From IMG/VR virus record IMGVR_UViG_2585427710_000003, positions 1 through 5,827 of that record: a stretch of 5,827 nt of DNA, one strand, 5' to 3'. Source of the DNA: a virus (lineage: Duplodnaviria; Heunggongvirae; Uroviricota; Caudoviricetes). The notes under the pieces are model-generated. The model was not told the DNA's origin and made no database searches. It saw only the letters and a program-made list of their open reading frames with translations. Positions within the stretch are counted from its first letter, which is position 1; the number at the start of each line of letters is the position of its first letter. Made by a program: the position numbers and the translations under genes. Below are positions 1 through 5,827 of this stretch, piece after piece.

Positions 1-621
1 CACACCTGGTTTCTGGCTGGCGAAGGTGAATCCCGGGTAACCGAAGAGCGGCCAGTAAAATCTGAAGCACAGGATATGCTGACCGGGGAGGTCGAACAAA
101 AAGTTACCGCAGACATGATGATTGAGTTTATCGGTCAGGATGGGGCTAAAACGTGTGAGGAACTGGCGGGTAAGTTCGGTGTTAGCATTCGCAAGGTTGC
201 TTCCACGTTGGCGGTCGTAACAGCAACGGGGCGCCTGGCACGCGTAAATCAGAACGGTAAATTTCGTTACTGCATACCGGGCGCTGATTTACCGGCAGAG
301 CCGGAAGCTGCATCCGTAGCGGAAACCGATGGTAAAGCCTTTCCTCAGCCAACAGGTGTTGCGTTACCAGTCCAGGAAACGACGACACAGGAAGAAATGA
401 AAACAGAAATCGTGGAAGACATTGTGAAGTTACAGCCATCGGTCACCGAAACGAAAGCAGATGACCTGATTCTACCATCGCTGCATGTGGCTAACCGCGA
501 GCTGCGCCGGGCAAAAGGTCAGGTTCAGAAGTGGGAGCGTGTCTACGCCGCGCTGCGGGAACTGAACAAACACAGGGATATTCTCCGGGATATTACCGCC
601 ACCAGAGAGCTGCTGCGGTGA
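1..621 (+). CDS. Phage hypothetical protein, 5'-truncated by the window edge; winged-helix-like segment followed by a charged, probably coiled-coil C-terminus
   Basis: The reading frame is open from base 1 (no stop before the first ATG at 76) and ends at TGA 619-621. The translation has an HTH-like stretch (EFIGQDGAKTCEELAGKFGVSIRKVASTL) and a Glu/Lys/Arg-rich tail. The stop overlaps a possible GTG start of the next ORF. Function is unknown; the replication-module neighbourhood is inferred from position only. Confidence 0.55.
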   Translation, partial: HTWFLAGEGESRVTEERPVKSEAQDMLTGEVEQKVTADMMIEFIGQDGAKTCEELAGKFGVSIRKVASTLAVVTATGRLARVNQNGKFRYCIPGADLPAEPEAASVAETDGKAFPQPTGVALPVQETTTQEEMKTEIVEDIVKLQPSVTETKADDLILPSLHVANRELRRAKGQVQKWERVYAALRELNKHRDILRDITATRELLR

Positions 622-653
622 GTGGCTGGAAGAAGTGGCGCTGGGCGGAAATT

Positions 654-935
654 ATGATACTCCGGCAGTGTGCGGGAACGATGACAGTCGAAAGCATCGG
701 CAGTCTGATTGGCCGTAGTGGGGCTGCCGTCAGGACGAAAGCGCGGGAACTGGGTATCTGCATGATGTTACGGGGTGATTATCACCAGTCAGCCAAATGT
801 TCACAGCGTGATATTGAGCTGGCGCGGCAACTGCATCAGCGTGGCGTACCCCGACGGGAAATTGCCGAAAAGTTTGGGATGAAGTTGGGCGCAGTGAATA
901 ACTACGTTTATTTCGACAGGAGGGTTCAGGCGTGA
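654..935 (+). CDS. Small phage protein with two HTH-like segments (hypothetical)
   Basis: The track ORF 531..935 overlaps the upstream gene by about 90 nt, so an internal start is more likely: ATG 654, or GTG 618 overlapping the upstream TGA (GTGA). Translation from 654 contains SIGSLIGRSGAAVRTKARELGI and RREIAEKFGMKLGAVNNYV, both helix-turn-helix-like. It ends at TGA 933-935, overlapping the GTG start of the next gene. Confidence 0.45.
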   Translation: MILRQCAGTMTVESIGSLIGRSGAAVRTKARELGICMMLRGDYHQSAKCSQRDIELARQLHQRGVPRREIAEKFGMKLGAVNNYVYFDRRVQA

Positions 936-1237
936 GGGTGAGAATTTATATCGCCGGTCCGATGACGGGATATGAAAATTTCAACCGTGAGGCGTTTCAC
1001 AAGGCGGAAGAAGCACTGAAACAGGAAGGGCATACCGTATTAAATCCCGCAGTACTTCCGGACGGGCTGACTCAGCCACATTACATGGATATTTGCATGG
1101 CAATGATTCGTTGTGTGGATGCGGTTTATATGCTGGAAGGCTGGCAGCGGTCGGCAGGCGCTAAGGCAGAGCTGGCACTGGCGGAGAAACTGGGGCATGC
1201 AGTTATTTTCCAGGAGGCAACCAGTGAGCGAAATTAA
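932..1237 (+). CDS. DUF4406 / nucleoside 2-deoxyribosyltransferase-like protein
   Basis: GTG start at 932 (alternative GTG at 938) with AGGAGG at 917-922. The N-terminus RIYIAGPMTGYENFNREAF matches from memory the hallmark start of DUF4406 proteins common in prophages. Stop is TAA 1235-1237. Confidence 0.65.
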   Translation: MRVRIYIAGPMTGYENFNREAFHKAEEALKQEGHTVLNPAVLPDGLTQPHYMDICMAMIRCVDAVYMLEGWQRSAGAKAELALAEKLGHAVIFQEATSERN

Positions 1238-1247
1238 TTACCAGGAA
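1224..1247 (+). repeat. 24-bp copy of the 5' end of the 171-aa gene (21/24 identical to 1733-1756); encodes a vestigial start VSEINYQE...
   Basis: GTGAGCGAAATTAATTACCAGGAA at 1224-1247 versus ATGAGCGAGATTAATTATCAGGAA at 1733-1756. Flanks on both sides are unrelated. Compared directly in the sequence. Confidence 0.7.
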
Positions 1248-1384
1248 CTACGGCAGGTGAAAGAGAAAGCATAATCCAGAACTGAATAATTAAAATCAGC
1301 ACTGTAAATAAAATTTAATCCTTAACCGGAGGGATTCCTGCACCCTCAGAACATCAGGAGACCGCCCGGCAGGGCGGTAGTGAA

Positions 1385-1567
1385 ATGCGAAAGTTCAAAA
1401 TAATTATTGAAACGGGAATCGCCGGTGGAGATTCCGAGGATGAATTCGAAGTGAATGATGATGCGACGCCTGATGAAATTCATAACGAAGCAAAAGAAAT
1501 TTTCTTTAACTACTGCAATTACTCATATCACGAAATAAAAGACGAAGAGGAAGAACAAAATGGCTGA
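1385..1567 (+). CDS. Small, highly acidic protein (60 aa; 18 Asp/Glu against 5 Lys/Arg); candidate DNA-mimic or anti-defence accessory protein
   Basis: ATG at 1385 is preceded by AGGAG (1356-1360), then a CCGCCC-GGCA-GGGCGG hairpin (1362-1377). Composition is strongly acidic with a C-terminal DEEEEQ. The stop TGA 1565-1567 overlaps the next ATG. It lies in an AT-rich segment that differs from its flanks. Confidence 0.5.
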   Translation: MRKFKIIIETGIAGGDSEDEFEVNDDATPDEIHNEAKEIFFNYCNYSYHEIKDEEEEQNG

Positions 1568-1736
1568 TTTTGGTTCAACTAAATACAACGTCAGTTTTGA
1601 AGAATGGCATGAACTGTTAATGGACTATGCAGAGTTACGTGGTGGAAGTGCCGCCGATGCTGAAGCATGGCGTGATGACTATGAAGCAGGAAAAACTCCG
1701 GTCGAAGCATATTGTGATGAGTGGGGCGATGAATGA
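1560..1736 (+). CDS. Second small acidic protein (58 aa, MADFGSTKYNVSFEEWHELLMDYAELRGGSAADAEAWRDDYEAGKTPVEAYCDEWGDE); below the length cut-off of the supplied ORF track
   Basis: ATG 1560 overlaps the stop of the previous ORF (ATGGCTGA), and its own stop TGA 1734-1736 overlaps ATG 1733 of the next gene (ATGA). It has 16 Asp/Glu against 4 Lys/Arg. The coupling on both sides supports translation. Confidence 0.45.
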   Translation: MADFGSTKYNVSFEEWHELLMDYAELRGGSAADAEAWRDDYEAGKTPVEAYCDEWGDE

Positions 1737-2248
1737 GCGAGATTAATTATCAGGAAGGGCATGAAACGGCAGGGCAGGCAAAACCAGTGGCATGGCGATA
1801 TCGCTACGTGAAAAAAGACGTTACAGACTTTCAGGGGAAGCAGTGGGCTGGTGACTGGAAATATGTACCGACAAAAGAGGATTGTAACGACAGGCCGAAC
1901 TATGAAATTCAGGCCTTATTCATCGGCCCGCCAGTCCCGGTGACATCAGAAGGACTGGTTAAAGCTGTGCGCTTTTATGAACAGGTAAAGCGTGAGAATC
2001 CGCCAGTCGAAACAGGAGCATGGAAGGATGCTGTTGACTGGGTGCTCAGAGAGGCCTGCTGTGCTGCCATTCTGGGTAAAGCCGACAATCCACCAGCATC
2101 CGGCAATCAGGTTAGCGAATTAGCAATGTGGGTTAAACGGCTGGTCAGCCAACTGAAAAAAGCGAAGCCGGACTGCAAATTACCGGATAAGGCGATGGAC
2201 TACCTGAAGCGAAACGGACTGATAAACGAGGAGAATATTTTACGATGA
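1733..2248 (+). CDS. Hypothetical phage protein (171 aa)
   Basis: ATG start coupled to the upstream ORF, 171 codons with balanced composition. Its first 8 codons are duplicated at 1224-1247. Stop TGA 2246-2248 overlaps ATG 2245 of a micro-ORF. No family recognised. Confidence 0.6.
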   Translation: MSEINYQEGHETAGQAKPVAWRYRYVKKDVTDFQGKQWAGDWKYVPTKEDCNDRPNYEIQALFIGPPVPVTSEGLVKAVRFYEQVKRENPPVETGAWKDAVDWVLREACCAAILGKADNPPASGNQVSELAMWVKRLVSQLKKAKPDCKLPDKAMDYLKRNGLINEENILR

Positions 2249-2328
2249 CCTGGCCTGAAGCGTTCATAACGGTAGGAATTGCAATGGCGGTGGCGCTGGT
2301 GGTGTATTCGATTTGCCGCTGGGGATAA
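2245..2328 (+). CDS. Possible 27-aa hydrophobic micro-protein (MTWPEAFITVGIAMAVALVVYSICRWG)
   Basis: ATG 2245 overlaps the stop of the 171-aa gene (ATGA). The peptide has a single predicted transmembrane-like hydrophobic core and ends at TAA 2326-2328. It is too short to judge by statistics; the coupling is the only support. Confidence 0.3.
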   Translation: MTWPEAFITVGIAMAVALVVYSICRWG

Positions 2329-2335
2329 AAACGGT

Positions 2336-2363
2336 TTGCGGGGAAAGAAGAGTTAAGTAGAAT
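2336..2363 (+). promoter_or_regulatory. Candidate promoter for the hok/mok mRNA (-35 TTGCGG 2336-2341, 16-bp spacer, -10 TAGAAT 2358-2363)
   Basis: Sigma70-like hexamers with correct spacing lie just upstream of a sequence (GGTGCTTGAGGCTGTCTGCC, from about 2371) that resembles the 5' end of plasmid R1 hok mRNA as I recall it. Confidence 0.4.
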
Positions 2364-2424
2364 TGCTGCGGGTGCTTGAGGCTGTCTGCCTCGGGCATGC
2401 CGCCGTAAGGCAGACAGAGAAAAG

Positions 2425-2490
2425 CCCCAGTTAACATTATGCGTCCGGCAGGACGCTTAACATTAATCTGAGGCCATATCTATGACTTGC
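2425..2490 (-). ncRNA. sok: Sok-like antisense RNA (antitoxin of the hok/mok type I TA locus); ends approximate
   Basis: Minus strand has -35 TTGCCT (complement of 2520-2525), a 17-bp spacer and -10 TAATCT (complement of 2497-2502), which would start a transcript near 2490. That transcript is antisense to the mok SD and start (2468-2484) and contains the GCGTCC-GGCA-GGACGC hairpin (2441-2456). This matches the known hok/sok arrangement. Confidence 0.4.
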
Positions 2491-2694
2491 ACACTTAGAT
2501 TAGCCTCTTATGCGCCGAAAGGCAAGGAGCAGCAGGCTATGAAGCAGCAAAAGGCGATGCTAATCGCCCTGATCGTCATCTGTATTACCGTCGTTGTAAC
2601 GGTACTGGTAACGAGGAAAGACCTCTGCGAGGTACGAATCCGAACCGGCCAGACGGAGGTCGCTGTCTTCACAGCTTACGAACCTGAGGAGTAA
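2482..2694 (+). CDS. mok: Mok-like leader reading frame (70 aa), in frame with hok and sharing its stop
   Basis: ATG 2482 has GAGG about 9 nt upstream. The ORF runs in frame into the hok ORF, as I recall chromosomal mok/hok pairs do. The sok target would cover its start. Confidence 0.5.
   Translation: MTCTLRLASYAPKGKEQQAMKQQKAMLIALIVICITVVVTVLVTRKDLCEVRIRTGQTEVAVFTAYEPEE
2497..2525 (-). promoter_or_regulatory. Candidate sok promoter on the minus strand, inside the mok coding region
   Basis: Reverse complement of 2497-2525 reads TTGCCT-17 bp-TAATCT. The position inside mok and the orientation toward the mok start match known hok/sok loci. Confidence 0.4.
2539..2694 (+). CDS. hok: Hok/Gef-family type I toxin (51 aa, MKQQKAMLIALIVICITVVVTVLVTRKDLCEVRIRTGQTEVAVFTAYEPEE)
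   Basis: ATG 2539 with AAGGAG at 2524-2529. The translation has the Hok/Gef signature: N-terminal transmembrane helix, TRKDLCEV, and a ...EVAVFTAYE... tail. From memory it is closest to HokD(RelF)/HokC(Gef). The flanking mRNA elements (leader, mok, terminator) are all present. Confidence 0.9.
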   Translation: MKQQKAMLIALIVICITVVVTVLVTRKDLCEVRIRTGQTEVAVFTAYEPEE

Positions 2695-2762
2695 GAGACC
2701 AGGCGGGGGAGAAATCCCTCGCCACCTCTGATGTGTCAGGCATCCTCAACGCACCCGCACTT

Positions 2763-2790
2763 AACCCGTTTCGGCGGGTTTTGTTTTTTC
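2763..2790 (+). terminator. Rho-independent terminator of the hok mRNA
   Basis: AACCCG (2763-2768) pairs with CGGGTT (2775-2780), followed by TTGTTTTTT (2781-2789). It sits about 70 nt after the hok stop. Confidence 0.7.
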
Positions 2791-2860
2791 CTGGCATTCT
2801 GGTTTACAATTCGCACGCCAGCCTGAACAACTGGCACCTGCTGCGTCACCGGAGAACCCG

Positions 2861-3133
2861 ATGGCGCAACATATAAAATCCCACAATTCTGAAGCCGTCC
2901 CGGCCATTAAGCGGGGGCGGCATTCGCACGTATTTAAAACCGACTGGTACCAGCATCCCCCCTGCACTGAAGAACAGGCCGAATGGCTGATTCAGTGTTA
3001 CCGCAGGCGCGGATACGAGGTTAAGAAAGCCATCAGCCTCGATTATCGTCACTGGATAATCTCTGTCAGGCTCCCTTATTCCGAACATCCACCGCGTCCG
3101 TCCCGCACATTCCAGCAACGTATCTGGAGGTAA
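2861..3133 (+). CDS. Hypothetical phage protein (90 aa)
   Basis: ATG 2861 with GGAGA at 2851-2855. Stop TAA 3131-3133 lies 1 nt before the GTG start of the DUF968-like gene, which implies co-translation. A minus-strand ORF of similar size overlaps it but has no start context. Confidence 0.5.
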   Translation: MAQHIKSHNSEAVPAIKRGRHSHVFKTDWYQHPPCTEEQAEWLIQCYRRRGYEVKKAISLDYRHWIISVRLPYSEHPPRPSRTFQQRIWR

Positions 3134-3134
3134 C

Positions 3135-4184
3135 GTGCGGGTATTACTTCGACCTGTTCTGGTGCCGGAACTTGGCCTGGTGGTCCTTAAGCCCGGACGC
3201 GAATCACTGCCTGTTTTTCATTGCGGCAGGGTGCTGGTGGAGCCGGAACCGAAAAACATGCGCGGTCTGCCGTCCGGAGTCGTTCCTGCCGTTCGCCAGC
3301 CGCTGGCAGAGGATAAAACATTACTGCCATTTTTCTGCGATGAGCGGGTTATTCGTGCAGCAGGTGGTGCAGGTGCACTGTCTGACTGGTTATTACGTCA
3401 CGTGAAATCCTGCCAGTGGCCACACGGCGATTATCATCACAGCGAAACCGTCATTCACCGTTATGGTACCGGCGCGATGGTGTTGTGCTGGCACTGTGAC
3501 AACCAGCTGCGCGACCAGACATCAGAATCACTCGATCAACTTGCTCAGCAGAATCTGGTTGCCTGGATGATTGACGTCATCCGTCACGCAATAAGCGGTA
3601 CGCAGGAGAGGGAGTTATCGCTGGCCGAATTATCCTGGTGGGCGGCCTGCAATCAGGTGGTGGATGCACTACCTGAGGCAGTAGCGCGTTGTTCGCTGGG
3701 ATTACCAGCGGAAAAAATCCGCTCCGTATACCGTGAGAGTGACATCGTACCGGGAGAACAGACAGCCATCAGCATACTGAAGCAGCGCACAAAAAATATT
3801 GCGCTGCCACTTCACGTCCACCAGCAACAAAATCCACCACAGAAAAAAACGGTTGTCAGTATCGCCGTTGATCCGGAGTCTCCTGAATCGTTCATGAGGC
3901 GGCCTAAATGTCGCCGTTGGGTTAATGAGAAATACACGCGCTGGGTAAAGACACAGCCGTGTGCGTGTTGTGGTAAGCCAGCTGACGATCCGCATCACCT
4001 GATTGGTCATGGTCAGGGGGGAATGGGAACAAAGGCCCACGATATTTTCACGCTACCGTTGTGCCGGGAGCACCACAACGAACTTCATGCAGACCCGCAG
4101 GAGTTTGAGAAAAAGTACGGCTCTCAGATTGAGTTAATTTTTCGTTTTCTTGATCACGCCTTTGCGACTGGCGTGCTCGGGTAA
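3135..4184 (+). CDS. DUF968-like prophage protein with a C-terminal HNH/His-Me-finger-like Cys/His motif
   Basis: GTG 3135 with GGAGG at 3126-3130; an internal ATG at 3258 is an alternative start. The C-terminus reads CACCGKPADDPHHLIGHGQGG...LPLCREHHNELH, and there is an earlier C..WHCDN cluster. From memory this resembles the DUF968 proteins found next to Q in E. coli cryptic prophages. Confidence 0.75.
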   Translation: MRVLLRPVLVPELGLVVLKPGRESLPVFHCGRVLVEPEPKNMRGLPSGVVPAVRQPLAEDKTLLPFFCDERVIRAAGGAGALSDWLLRHVKSCQWPHGDYHHSETVIHRYGTGAMVLCWHCDNQLRDQTSESLDQLAQQNLVAWMIDVIRHAISGTQERELSLAELSWWAACNQVVDALPEAVARCSLGLPAEKIRSVYRESDIVPGEQTAISILKQRTKNIALPLHVHQQQNPPQKKTVVSIAVDPESPESFMRRPKCRRWVNEKYTRWVKTQPCACCGKPADDPHHLIGHGQGGMGTKAHDIFTLPLCREHHNELHADPQEFEKKYGSQIELIFRFLDHAFATGVLG

Positions 4185-4196
4185 AAGAGGTGACTG

Positions 4197-4556
4197 ATGC
4201 TCATAGATTTGGTTTTACCTTACCCGCCGACGGTGAACACTTACTGGCGACGCCGTGGCAGCACATATTTTGTATCAAAAGCCGGGGAGCGTTATCGCCG
4301 GGCAGTGGCGCTTATTGTTCGCCAGCAGCGGCTGAAATTAAGCCTGTCCGGACGGCTGGCAATAAAAATTATTGCAGAGCCACCGGATAAGCGCCGCCGT
4401 GACCTGGACAATATTCTGAAAGCACCGCTGGATGCGCTGACGCACGCGGGGTTGTTAATGGACGATGAGCAGTTTGATGAAATCAATATTGTACGTGGCA
4501 AGCCAGTATCTGGTGGACGGCTGGAGATAAAAATTACAGAGGTGGGGTGTGCATGA
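4197..4556 (+). CDS. rusA: RusA-family Holliday-junction resolvase
   Basis: ATG 4197 with AAAGAGG at 4184-4190. The 119-aa translation has the RusA hallmarks YPPTVNTYWR, DKRRRDLDN and GGRLEIKITE. Its position immediately upstream of Q is typical of lambdoid phages. Confidence 0.85.
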   Translation: MLIDLVLPYPPTVNTYWRRRGSTYFVSKAGERYRRAVALIVRQQRLKLSLSGRLAIKIIAEPPDKRRRDLDNILKAPLDALTHAGLLMDDEQFDEINIVRGKPVSGGRLEIKITEVGCA

Positions 4557-5242
4557 ATAACCAGTATTTACAGTTTGTTCGTGAGCAACTCATGATTGCC
4601 ACTGCGGATCTCAGTGGGGCGACAAAAGGTCAACTGGAAGCCTGTCAGGAAAATGCCCTGTTCGATACAGGGCGTTACAGACGCAAAAAAATTCGTTACC
4701 GCGATGAGGTAACCGGAAAAATGATCACGCGGGATAATCCCCCAATCCCGGGTAAACAATCACTGGCGAAAGGCTCATCAATTGCCCTGGTCAGTCCTGT
4801 TGAGTTTGCAACATCATCGTGGCGGCGTACCCTTCTGGAACTGGAAGAACATCAGAAGGCGTGGTTGTTGTGGTGTTATGGCGGAAACATTTGCTGGGAG
4901 CATCAGATCGCGATAACGCAGTGGGTGTGGAATGAATTTAAAACTCAGTCTGGTACCAGAAAAATTGCAGTGAAAACGCTGGAGCGTGTGAAGAAGTTGA
5001 TCTGGCTGGCGGCACAGGATGTCAGAGGATGGGTTACCGGGTGTGAGGTCTACCAGAGACAGGAGCTTGCCAGACTGTGTGGAGTTAAGCCTGATAACTG
5101 GAGCCATAATTATGCGAACTACTGGCGTGAGATGTGCGATATTTTTAAGCGCCTCGATAGAGAATCCTTGATTTGCTCCGTGAAAATAAGAGCGCAACAA
5201 AAAGCGACCTTTTCACGACGAGATATTGCAAAAGTCAATTAA
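4553..5242 (+). CDS. Q-like late-gene antiterminator (putative)
   Basis: ATG 4553 overlaps the rusA stop (ATGA) with GAGGTGG at 4540-4546; the track start at 4547 is a GTG. The 229-aa ORF sits between rusA and a short leader with an intrinsic terminator, the canonical position of Q. The assignment is mainly by synteny; I do not recognise the sequence with certainty. Confidence 0.6.
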   Translation: MNNQYLQFVREQLMIATADLSGATKGQLEACQENALFDTGRYRRKKIRYRDEVTGKMITRDNPPIPGKQSLAKGSSIALVSPVEFATSSWRRTLLELEEHQKAWLLWCYGGNICWEHQIAITQWVWNEFKTQSGTRKIAVKTLERVKKLIWLAAQDVRGWVTGCEVYQRQELARLCGVKPDNWSHNYANYWREMCDIFKRLDRESLICSVKIRAQQKATFSRRDIAKVN

Positions 5243-5303
5243 ATCGCGTATGTTTCGTATAAATCTGATATTTTGCCTATTTTGTACGCGATGACAAAAT
5301 AAG
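5243..5303 (+). promoter_or_regulatory. Candidate late promoter (pR'-like) and Q-utilisation region
   Basis: AT-rich stretch between the Q stop and the terminator, with a -10-like TATAAA at 5258-5263 and a weak -35. Q-dependent late promoters typically have a poor -35 and a short terminated leader. This is inference only. Confidence 0.3.
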
Positions 5304-5331
5304 AAAAAAACTGCCGCCAGGCGGTTTTTTT
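5304..5331 (+). terminator. Intrinsic terminator (tR'-like), symmetric with an A-tract and a T-tract, so possibly bidirectional
   Basis: AAAAAAA (5304-5310), then a GC hairpin CCGC-CAG-GCGG (5314-5324), then TTTTTTT (5325-5331). Confidence 0.7.
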
Positions 5332-5454
5332 ATGTCCGAAAATCGCGTCAGTACAGTAAACGCGCTGGCGGCGGTGAATACCGGTCTTTCAGCTTGCTGG
5401 CTTTTTCGACAAGAGTTATTGGTGTGTCACGTTAACCGAAAAAGGGAAAAAGAC

Positions 5455-5652
5455 ATGCTGAAACAGCGGGATATGACAGAAACCGCCAGAGCAGTTTTTA
5501 ATGAATTAAGTGCCACCGAACCGGCGACAGTCGGGGAGATTGCACAGAATACGTACCTTTCACGCGAACGCTGCCAGCTAATACTGACCCAGCTTGTTAT
5601 GGCGGGTCTGGCAGACTATCAGTTTGGTTGTTACAGACGCCTTCAGTCCTGA
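5455..5652 (+). CDS. Small winged-helix protein (65 aa), PapI/FaeA-like putative regulator; cargo gene downstream of the late terminator
   Basis: ATG 5455 has AAGGGA at 5442-5447. The track ORF starts at ATG 5332, directly abutting the terminator T-tract with no SD, so the internal start is preferred. The translation ...TVGEIAQNTYLSRERCQLILTQLVMAGLA... looks like a recognition helix followed by a wing. Confidence 0.5.
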   Translation: MLKQRDMTETARAVFNELSATEPATVGEIAQNTYLSRERCQLILTQLVMAGLADYQFGCYRRLQS

Positions 5653-5667
5653 AGGCTTTTTTATTTG
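5639..5667 (+). terminator. Rho-independent terminator overlapping the stop of the small wHTH gene
   Basis: GCCTTCA (5639-5645) pairs with TGAAGGC (5650-5656) around a GTCC loop, followed by TTTTTTATTT (5657-5666). The stop codon TGA 5650-5652 is inside the stem. Confidence 0.7.
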
Positions 5668-5827
5668 TGGTAAATGGGCGGCTGGTGGGGGTTAGGGGCA
5701 CTCACCAGCCATCTGCTCATGCGTTGGGGTCACAAGCAAACCTCAGGCCCATCTGCTTTGCGCAAAAGCGGTATGAGCCTATCAGAGACAGGCTTAATGA
5801 TCCATGTTTAATACTGTAAAAATATCC

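Follow-up and report, generated by a model that had tools for sequence, protein, structure and literature searches.

A small winged-helix gene and a structured leader RNA that accompany M.EcoGII-type methyltransferase genes in lambdoid phages

We analysed a stretch of 5,827 nucleotides (nt), hereafter the window, from the Caudoviricetes virus record IMGVR_UViG_2585427710_000003 (positions 1 to 5,827), and concentrated on a small open reading frame (ORF) at 5455-5652, downstream of the antiterminator gene Q. The 5.8-kilobase window covers the early-right/late junction of a lambdoid prophage carried by enterohaemorrhagic E. coli. The small ORF is a real gene under purifying selection, and it is a very frequent but dispensable companion of a conserved spacer and of an adenine DNA methyltransferase (methylase) gene of the M.EcoGII family. 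The spacer is very probably a genuine new structured regulatory RNA, whatever the small protein does. More tentatively, we propose that the small protein heads a late-operon module, binds this leader RNA and tunes translation of the methylase. An initial annotation of the window had read the small ORF as a cargo gene for a PapI/FaeA-like protein that could act as a regulator of the host. The features on which our reading depends are the following.

5455-5652, + strand: gene of 65 codons for a 65-aa minimal winged-helix protein (phrog_331; PGAP 'TrmB family transcriptional regulator', WP_032324269.1)
5394-5418, + strand: conserved motif in the 5' untranslated region (UTR) of the small gene, TTGCTG (5394-99) followed by AGAGTTA (5412-18)
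5639-5662, + strand: second intrinsic terminator, T2, found by terminator scan; stem at 5639-5656 (GCCUUCA/UGAAGGC), then T6; overlaps the stop codon of the small gene
5666-5806, + strand: methyltransferase leader RNA of ~140 nt, with helices P1b, P2 and P4, alternatives P3 and P5, and long-range helix P6
5674-79/5715-20 (P1b), 5680-87/5703-10 (P2) and 5746-59/5765-79 (P4), + strand: core helices of the leader, from a covariance model and the minimum free energy (MFE) fold
5715-21/5731-37 (P3) and 5776-80/5790-94 (P5), + strand: alternative helices of the leader, from a second covariance model
5727-32/5798-5803 (P6), + strand: long-range helix of the leader pairing GGGUCA with UGAUCC, directly 5' of the methylase AUG, from the MFE fold
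5804-5827, + strand: start of the gene for a predicted M.EcoGII-type non-specific adenine DNA methyltransferase, cut by the window end; no canonical Shine-Dalgarno site

The small gene, its methyltransferase neighbour and the RNA between them

In a one-genome-per-species scan that reached from Escherichia to Plesiomonas, a methyltransferase gene began 138-154 nt past the stop codon of the small ORF in 35 of 37 loci; the remaining two were a truncated copy and a spurious match. Apart from these two, the small ORF was never found among the 37 loci without an M.EcoGII-type methyltransferase downstream. The order of the two genes was the same in all phage records inspected, and phages mEp460, SfV, phiNP, Hafnia yong2 and Morganella IME1369_02 all carry Q, (a terminator), the small ORF, a gap of ~140-155 nt, a methyltransferase of ~351 aa and then lysis genes. 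With this spacing and with a conserved RNA between the two genes, the small ORF is not independent cargo, contrary to the initial annotation. We also searched from the methylase side, where 246 loci had enough upstream sequence. The ORF and the conserved spacer were both present in 176 of these, the spacer without an ORF detectable by hidden Markov model (HMM) in 47, and neither in 22. About 35 of the 47 spacer-only loci have, in the same place, a divergent winged-helix-like ORF of 75-98 aa with the motif E-MTE-A ... EFIIEQM ... GRYSLTPEY. By profile comparison (hhalign), one of these divergent ORFs matches the small protein with 87% probability and another does not, and an iterated HMM search for them found no further convergence at E <= 1e-3. 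Taken together, a winged helix-turn-helix (wHTH) or wHTH-like ORF occupies that place in ~211 of the 223 leader-bearing loci (~95%).

The methylase gene is complete in an identical prophage (L001:9605-10663), and its product is 93% identical to M.EcoGII (325 of 349 residues; reference sequence from the supplement of PMC11551740). Its motifs follow the beta-class order: DPPY occupies residues 35-38, and FMGSGS lies close to the C-terminus. The enzyme belongs to the M.EcoGII family and, judging by sequence identity, would methylate adenine non-specifically; a sequence search found no solved structure of M.EcoGII. M.EcoGII and M.EcoGI are non-specific adenine DNA methyltransferases of E. coli O104:H4 prophages. 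M.EcoGII was first characterised in PMC5778455, which noted that this prophage gene is not expressed in the lysogen and found the enzyme harmful when constitutively expressed; an RNA-methylation tool was later engineered from it (PMC11551740). Our subject here is the neighbouring small gene rather than the enzyme.

The leader between the two genes is better conserved than either flanking coding sequence, with 72-84% nucleotide identity against 60-85% for the small ORF and 66-79% for the methylase gene. Its length is tightly constrained and it keeps invariant single-stranded blocks. We built a covariance model, R1, on P1b, P2 and P4 and used it to search 78 sequences, 75 of them methylase loci. 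The model matched 56 of the 78 and none of three Q82-type phage loci that lack the methylase. In the resulting alignment, which is fitted to the model and therefore inflates the pairing and covariation figures, 92.4% of cells were paired, 19 of 24 pairs had compensatory double changes (126 cells), and the covariation score was 0.33, compared with 0.14 for shuffled alignments (0 of 500 reached the observed value) and at most 0.09 when partners were slid. An unfitted MAFFT alignment still gave 86% pairing, against ~40% for slid partners. The MFE fold of the window sequence by itself yields P1b, P2, P4 and P6. Plain MAFFT alignments of diverse leaders misalign the hairpins, and covariance models were used instead. 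An Rfam search of 5667-5806 gave no match on the + strand even at E <= 10.

Three further helices suggest that the leader has more than one fold. P3 re-uses the 3' strand of P1b, so that P1b and P3 are mutually exclusive; it is 74% paired, with compensatory changes in all seven of its pairs (for example, C-G 33 against U-A 17). In P5, which is 73% paired, AGCCU pairs with the sole Shine-Dalgarno-like AGG upstream of the methylase AUG. P6 is 74% paired compared with ~30% for slid controls, and its covariation is weak. The methylase start region is thus predicted by folding to be open to sequestration in the P5/P6 folds.

A GATC (Dam site) lies at 5799-5802, 1-5 nt 5' of the methylase ATG, within a conserved CUGAUCYAUG. 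The enterobacterial and Providencia/Morganella groups keep this site almost without exception, and it also falls inside the proposed helix P6. The mom gene of phage Mu is Dam-regulated.

We considered whether the leader might be a coding upstream ORF. The AUG at 5674, located 22-26 nt past the small-ORF stop, is kept in 49 of 56 sequences and so is nearly invariant; in the window it opens a 45-codon ORF (5674-5811) that ends 5 nt past the methylase start codon and there resembles a coupling ORF. Among the 56 relatives, however, this ORF varies from 3 to 58 codons, is often just MGGWWVL-stop, and shifts frame. Because it is conserved in neither length nor frame, we conclude that the leader is an RNA structure and not a leader peptide.

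We next turn to the small gene itself. PGAP calls it at the same coordinates, and a Shine-Dalgarno site (AAGGG, 5442-5446) lies 8 nt 5' of its ATG. Its product matches 296 protein clusters at E <= 1e-3, and its first seven residues, MLxQxDM, are invariant among homologues down to 43% identity. The ratio of nonsynonymous to synonymous substitution rates (dN/dS) is 0.06-0.08 in close relatives, and its median across all pairs is 0.26; the ORF, whose conservation the initial annotation had singled out for checking, is kept in homologues. Some annotations call a 106-codon frame from ATG 5332. We rejected this reading: the N-terminal extension lies in differing frames in homologues, and MLxQxDM marks the true start. 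In the 5' UTR, the TTGCTG...AGAGTTA motif is invariant in all seven diverse phages aligned, from Escherichia to Hafnia and Morganella phages, and may be an operator or an activator-dependent promoter. No sigma70 promoter passed the scan between tR' (the terminator upstream of the small gene, described below) and the small ORF or ahead of the methylase gene; the arrangement TTGCTG-N17-TAYnnG lacks the T at -7. RNA structure in this 5' UTR was likewise discounted, with no significant fold (z = 0.0). At the other end of the gene, the T2 hairpin folds with -10.5 kcal/mol (z = -3.2) and covaries in homologues, with compensatory changes in four of its seven pairs; its strong T-tract is confined to the E. 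coli group.

The protein is a bare winged helix. AlphaFold2, run with 27 homologues, predicted a minimal wHTH domain (mean predicted local distance difference test score, pLDDT, 91.8) in which an H1-H2-H3 bundle is followed by a beta-hairpin wing, structurally similar to solved wHTH domains; on the fold of the 65-aa product, the initial annotation was right. Variation is found in helices 1-2 and the wing, whereas helix 3 (R-C-Q-L-I-L-T-Q-L) and the N-terminus (MLxQxDMT) hardly change. The top Foldseek matches were the winged-helix domains of small-molecule methyltransferases. DNA-binding repressors make up most of the top structural neighbours (BlaI/MecI-like, ArsR, MarR and IclR N-terminal domains), and RNA- or Z-nucleic-acid-binding winged helices (SelB, Zalpha) are found among the neighbours as well as DNA binders.

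Sequence profiles place the protein in a family of its own. The PHROG family phrog_331, annotated 'unknown function', matches residues 1-64 with E 9.6e-37 and 126 bits. The best Pfam matches (TrmB, HTH_24, DprA_WH and MarR_2) all fall under their curated cut-offs; TrmB (PF01978) reaches 19.9 bits (E 6.7e-4) against a gathering score of 25.6 bits. FaeA/PapI (PF04703, gathering score 20.7 bits) gave no match at E <= 1 with either the 65-aa or the 106-aa reading, and no NCBIfam model reached its cut-off for the 65-aa protein. The protein shares the three-helix and beta-hairpin fold with TrmB, MarR and HTH_24 factors and with PapI/FaeA. It differs from the TrmB, MarR and HTH_24 factors in being a bare domain with no sensor or dimerisation domain; in TrmB proteins the wHTH is followed by a coiled-coil or a sugar-binding effector domain, whereas the 65-aa protein is wHTH only. 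Nor does its setting resemble that of PapI/FaeA, a fimbrial operon with an Lrp/Dam phase switch; in prophages the order is always Q, wHTH gene, methyltransferase, lysis genes. The PapI/FaeA-like label of the initial annotation therefore does not hold. The family is tiny, with 93 clusters (50% identity) at E <= 1e-3 among 1.84 billion proteins, and was found solely in phages and prophages of Enterobacterales.

A possible protein-RNA switch and its rivals

The module is ordered tR', wHTH gene, T2 hairpin/terminator, ~140-nt leader RNA and M.EcoGII-type methylase gene. The presence of a structured RNA between the small gene and the methylase argues for a phage-internal role tied to the methylase. 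In the scheme that we infer, including its Q-dependent expression, protein-leader binding and direction of effect, transcripts from the late promoter pR' would end at tR' in the lysogen and T2 would catch leakage. Upon induction, an 82-type Q would carry RNA polymerase through both terminators, and the small protein and the leader-methylase mRNA would then be produced together. Covariation and folding suggest that one fold of the leader (P1b plus P6/P5) would bury the methylase start region and the other (P3) would free it. The wHTH protein would bind the leader as RNA and shift or lock the balance between the folds, as gene linkage and analogy suggest.

The analogy is with com-mom of phage Mu. 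There the small protein Com activates translation of the toxic late adenine-modifying enzyme Mom, which is made only when Com binds the mRNA leader and opens an inhibitory structure (PMC6483171). Mu-like prophages have Com-like genes ahead of non-specific adenine methyltransferases (FluMu hin1523, Pnm1 nma1821 and hia5; PMC3299994). As in Mu, a very small regulator gene lies just 5' of the gene for a late, host-toxic DNA adenine-modifying enzyme. In Mu an inhibitory RNA structure encloses the mom start region, and here a sequestering fold is predicted, with partial covariation support for P5 and P6. The differences are substantial. Com is a four-Cys zinc ribbon, whereas the partner here is a 65-aa winged helix with two Cys and no match to PF10122 (Zn_ribbon_Com) in a Pfam scan; the Mu genes overlap, whereas a multi-helix leader of ~140 nt separates the genes here; and Mu uses C with Dam/OxyR where the sequence here points to lambdoid Q antitermination. 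We find it doubtful, if worth stating, that the 65-aa winged helix and the leader together form a protein-RNA switch, a winged-helix analogue of Mu Com gating M.EcoGII-type hypermethylases, with the leader as a new class of cis-regulatory RNA. The lesser part of this idea, that the leader is a real new structured regulatory RNA irrespective of the protein, we hold to be very probable.

ORFs resembling com were seen only in distant members of the methylase family, where an ORF of 38-42 aa with a CxxC...CxxC pattern lies directly upstream of the methylase gene (L244:1458-1583, L246:1462-1587, L255:1419-1535, L264:1462-1578, L268:1451-1579 and, in L196, within 1423-1677). The best Pfam match of such an ORF is Zn_ribbon_Com, under threshold, and it matches phrog_6417, 'translational regulator'. 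Some of these ORFs lie between leader and methylase, and one branch has the order wH-like ORF, leader, Com-like ORF, methylase. Others are in apparently Mu-like contexts, with large unannotated upstream ORFs and no leader.

Several observations weigh against our proposal that the wHTH protein acts on the leader. About 12 loci keep the leader and an intact methylase without a wHTH ORF, and in some of these the nearest upstream ORF is Q-like, as judged by eye only. These loci indicate that the protein is dispensable and likelier to be a modulator, repressor or timer than an essential activator. P3, P5 and P6 (73-74% paired) are less supported than P1b, P2 and P4, and the P3 and P5 alignments are fitted to their model. 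The wHTH fold is equally typical of DNA-binding repressors, and the net charge of the protein is close to zero. The branch that combines a wH-like ORF and the leader with a Com-like ORF indicates that the wHTH protein is not simply a replacement for Com. Finally, the promoter, pause site and transcript ends of the late leader are putative, being placed by homology.

In three of the loci with leader and methylase but no wHTH ORF (L208:827-1063, L215:774-1010 and L217:774-1010), we found a 78-aa ORF, DinI-like by eye, together with a gene for an 80-88-aa helical protein upstream, indicating that other small genes can fill the slot.

A plain DNA-binding role for the wHTH protein is a serious rival, although on balance we consider it unlikely. 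Like a C protein or a small repressor, it would regulate its own module through an operator in 5394-5418 or in the leader DNA, timing or capping transcription of the wHTH and methylase genes, and the leader RNA would act independently. The predominance of DNA-binding repressors among the top structural neighbours fits this idea, as do the sub-threshold Pfam matches to transcription-factor wHTH families, the invariant TTGCTG...AGAGTTA upstream of the gene with no RNA-fold signal, and the dispensability of the protein in ~5% of loci, which would suit a repressor or modulator. The C proteins of restriction-modification systems offer a parallel in that a gene for a small DNA-binding protein lies just upstream of, and is co-transcribed with, a modification or restriction gene that needs timing; they are, however, Xre-type HTH dimers on C-boxes, and the present locus has neither that fold nor a C-box nor a restriction partner. 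Moreover, no dyad-symmetric operator is evident, the sole inverted repeat of the leader (P2) covaries and so is not a fixed protein-recognition palindrome, the region from tR' to the methylase gene lacks a sigma70-like promoter, and the 65-aa protein has no obvious dimerisation element. Less probable still is that the wHTH protein works with the methylase product, binding the enzyme or hypermethylated DNA so as to direct or limit methylation, protect phage DNA rich in N6-methyladenine (m6A), or serve as a decoy against m6A-dependent restriction (type IV, with a winged-helix sensor). Such a partnership would leave the conserved spacing and the structured leader unexplained, M.EcoGII works by itself both in vitro and in vivo (PMC5778455), and structure comparisons showed nothing that specifically resembles the sensor domains of DpnI or Mrr. 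What it does account for is the strict one-way dependence, the wHTH gene never being found without the methylase; in addition, prokaryotic winged helices act as m6A sensors in DpnI-like and type IV enzymes (PMC11037411), and many small-molecule methyltransferases, the top Foldseek matches, use winged-helix domains for protein-protein contacts.

The reading of the initial annotation, that the gene is an independent 'moron' whose PapI/FaeA-like product reprogrammes fimbrial or phase-variable operons of the host on induction, now seems to us very unlikely. The slot between tR' and the lysis genes does carry stx, tRNAs, nanS-p and other morons, the gene has its own Shine-Dalgarno site and terminator, and it is widespread: a 5200-5827 query containing it matches 2169 of 5426 complete E. 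coli genomes (~40%), with up to 8 copies per genome. These points must be set against the missing FaeA/PapI match, the lack of a promoter of its own in the scan, the constant company of methylase and leader across genera with differing host regulons, the tiny family confined to phages and prophages, and the scant time that a regulator made once the cell is committed to lysis would have to affect the host. We judge just as improbable a model in which translation of the small ORF matters rather than its protein. Ribosomes ending in T2 (stop codon at 5650-5652) would restart at AUG 5674 or melt P1b/P2 to give the P3 form, coupling methylase translation to that of the small ORF. Although the nearly invariant AUG 5674 at a short distance past the stop, the location of the stop codon inside a conserved hairpin and the mutual exclusion of P1b and P3 would all agree with such coupling, the clear purifying selection on the protein and its confident fold argue that the product itself is selected. 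In addition, the ORF from AUG 5674 has no Shine-Dalgarno site and varies in length as described above, and the loci without a wHTH ORF keep the leader.

The small gene as a 'TrmB family' or hypothetical protein, the methylase as M.EcoGII and the logic of Q, pR' and tR' are already known. No description of the near-obligate wHTH-methylase pairing, the structured leader or the com-mom parallel was found by term searches of PMC5778455 and PMC6266700 or in Rfam and PHROG: in the M.EcoGII paper (PMC5778455) the search turned up neither a small upstream ORF nor a leader, and in the comparative paper on Stx pR' (PMC6266700) it turned up no methyltransferase and no ORF. The module suggests a three-layer control circuit, comprising Q antitermination through two terminators, a structured leader and a dedicated small protein. 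In many Stx2-converting phages it lies directly between Q/pR' and the tRNA-stx2 genes, which places its terminators and RNA structures on the path of every toxin transcript. The leader would extend the catalogue of structured RNAs by a new and widespread one, and the phrog_331 wHTH family would acquire a function. Should the protein instead prove to be an ordinary DNA-binding regulator of the operon that it belongs to, the outcome would be modest but would still correct the 'TrmB family' and 'PapI-like' labels.

Antiterminator Q and the late leader

Upstream of the small gene we identified the elements expected of a late leader of the phage 82 type.

4547-5242, + strand: antiterminator Q gene of the phage 82 / 434 / Gifsy-1 type (PF06323 Phage_antiter_Q, E 2.6e-82)
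5226-5261, + strand: putative late promoter pR', with -35 TTGCAA (5226-5231), a 17-bp spacer and -10 TATGTT (5249-5254)
5266-5285, + strand: candidate sigma70-dependent pause / Q-loading element of the 82 type, with TG (5266-67), TATTTT (5269-74), GCC (5275-77) and AT-rich TATTTTGT (5278-85)
5278-5301, + strand: small AU hairpin in the predicted short pR' transcript, UAUUUUGU ... ACAAAAUA
5304-5332, + strand: intrinsic terminator tR', found by terminator scan; stem core at 5313-5325, lengthened by A7/U7 pairing, with the T-tract reaching 5332

The arrangement set out in the initial annotation (a Q-like gene, an AT-rich leader, a terminator, a small ORF with a Shine-Dalgarno site and a second terminator) was recovered element by element, and its pR'/tR' reading is well supported by the comparisons that follow. 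The Q gene is 76% identical to phage 82 Q in DNA, and its product is 62% identical in amino acids to phage 434 Q and 60% to Gifsy-1 Q. We aligned the 3' end of Q and the downstream DNA from the window, PPompW, phage 434 and Gifsy-1. The pR' hexamers, which overlap the 3' end of the Q gene, keep their position in all of these (TTGCAA, 17 bp, then TATGTT in the window and TATATT or TATACT elsewhere), and TGATATTTT comes after the conserved -10. In Gifsy-1 the equivalent promoter drives the small RNA IsrK (PMC4825925). The putative pR' scores 8/12, under the promoter-scan threshold of 9/12, and homology would place its start at about A5261, 7 nt past the -10.

The published description of the 82 pR' pause signal comprises an extended -10-like element, GCC at +15-17, an AT-rich stretch at +18-25 and a pause at +25/26 (PMC5001585). 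With +1 set at 5261, TGaTATTTT-GCC-TATTTTGT (5266-5285) agrees exactly with that description, which, rather than the phage 82 sequence, was the basis of the comparison. The TGrTATkTT portion is kept in PPompW and phage 434. The leader after Q has a G+C content of 33-35%, with the 65 nt past Q being AT-rich, and 5259-5334 folds with -20 kcal/mol (z = -3.6). The AU hairpin at 5278-5301 is kept in PPompW and absent from phage 434. Folded alone (5300-5334), tR' reaches -15.1 kcal/mol (z = -4.8), which none of 200 shuffles matched, and a terminator is annotated at the corresponding place in phage 434. An 82-family Q immediately upstream, a candidate promoter with its pause element and a terminator shortly downstream are thus found in the order seen in 82-type late leaders.

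The predicted pR'-tR' RNA of ~70 nt would correspond in position to StxS (PMC7547250) and to the Gifsy-1 RNA IsrK (PMC4825925). It is predicted to share with lambda 6S RNA, StxS of Stx1 and Stx2a phages and IsrK a constitutive late promoter directly past Q, a sigma70 pause and an immediate terminator. We rejected homology of this RNA to IsrK, AgrB and others, the Rfam matches lying far under their gathering scores (21.9 bits against 50 for isrK) and resting mainly on the terminator, and retained only the positional equivalence. In Gifsy-1, which has the same Q family, the first genes downstream of IsrK are regulators and not lysis genes (PMC4825925). Sequence similarity to IsrK is marginal, and the downstream genes differ: orf45-anrP in Gifsy-1 and the wHTH-methylase genes here. 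AnrP (CDS STM2616, a coding sequence of 564 nt) is antirepressor-like and orf45 is a 45-codon leader ORF; both were considered as homologues of the small protein and found to be unrelated.

A mosaic junction lies exactly at tR', at ~5307. In Stx2a phages with an unrelated 126-aa Q, homology to the window starts at ~5307 and everything from the terminator on is in common, indicating that tR' is also a mosaic boundary. PPompW, which has the same Q type, shares Q, pR' and tR' with the window and then carries tRNAs in place of the wHTH-methylase module. Sequence comparison thus suggests that Q and its promoter move together and that the module past tR' is exchangeable.

In at least one strain, E. 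coli 95-3192, an insertion of the IS3 family splits the prophage Q gene (L001:7041-9043, the counterpart of 4547-5242), and the module is otherwise identical. Because of this insertion, antitermination into the wHTH-methylase-lysis operon should be lost in that prophage.

The prophage and other genes of the window

The region 5200-5827 is 100% identical to chromosomes of O145:H28 and other Shiga toxin-producing E. coli. Along the window, the gene order is DUF1627, DUF4406, several small ORFs, a hok/sok locus, a 90-aa ORF, DUF968, RusA and the 231-aa antiterminator Q. In the identical prophage, the genes that follow are the DNA methyltransferase, tRNA-Met, a SASA esterase (nanS-p type), holin, lysozyme and spanin; the lysis genes that the initial annotation had expected downstream are therefore present, and the small gene sits, as it had proposed, in the slot between tR' and the lysis cassette where related phages carry stx2 and tRNAs. 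Stx2a-converting phages also carry this small ORF with its methyltransferase, and behind the pair come three tRNAs and stx2AB.

A complete hok/sok type I toxin-antitoxin locus lies at 2370-2694. Its sok RNA is matched by Rfam at 2370-2544 with 114.8 bits, and its Hok/Gef ORF (PF01848, E 3.9e-23), called hokD in the identical prophage, ends at 2694. The DUF1627 protein (76-621) has a weak N-terminal winged-helix signal, with FeoC and PafC-HTH matches, and gives the sole FaeA-like match of the window (14 bits, under the cut-off). The 'FaeA-like' label, if it suits anything in the window, would suit this protein rather than the 65-aa ORF. A 90-aa ORF (2861-3133), located between hok and the DUF968 gene, has no Pfam match and is 'hypothetical' in the identical prophage; an ORF of equal size occupies the same place in PPompW phages.

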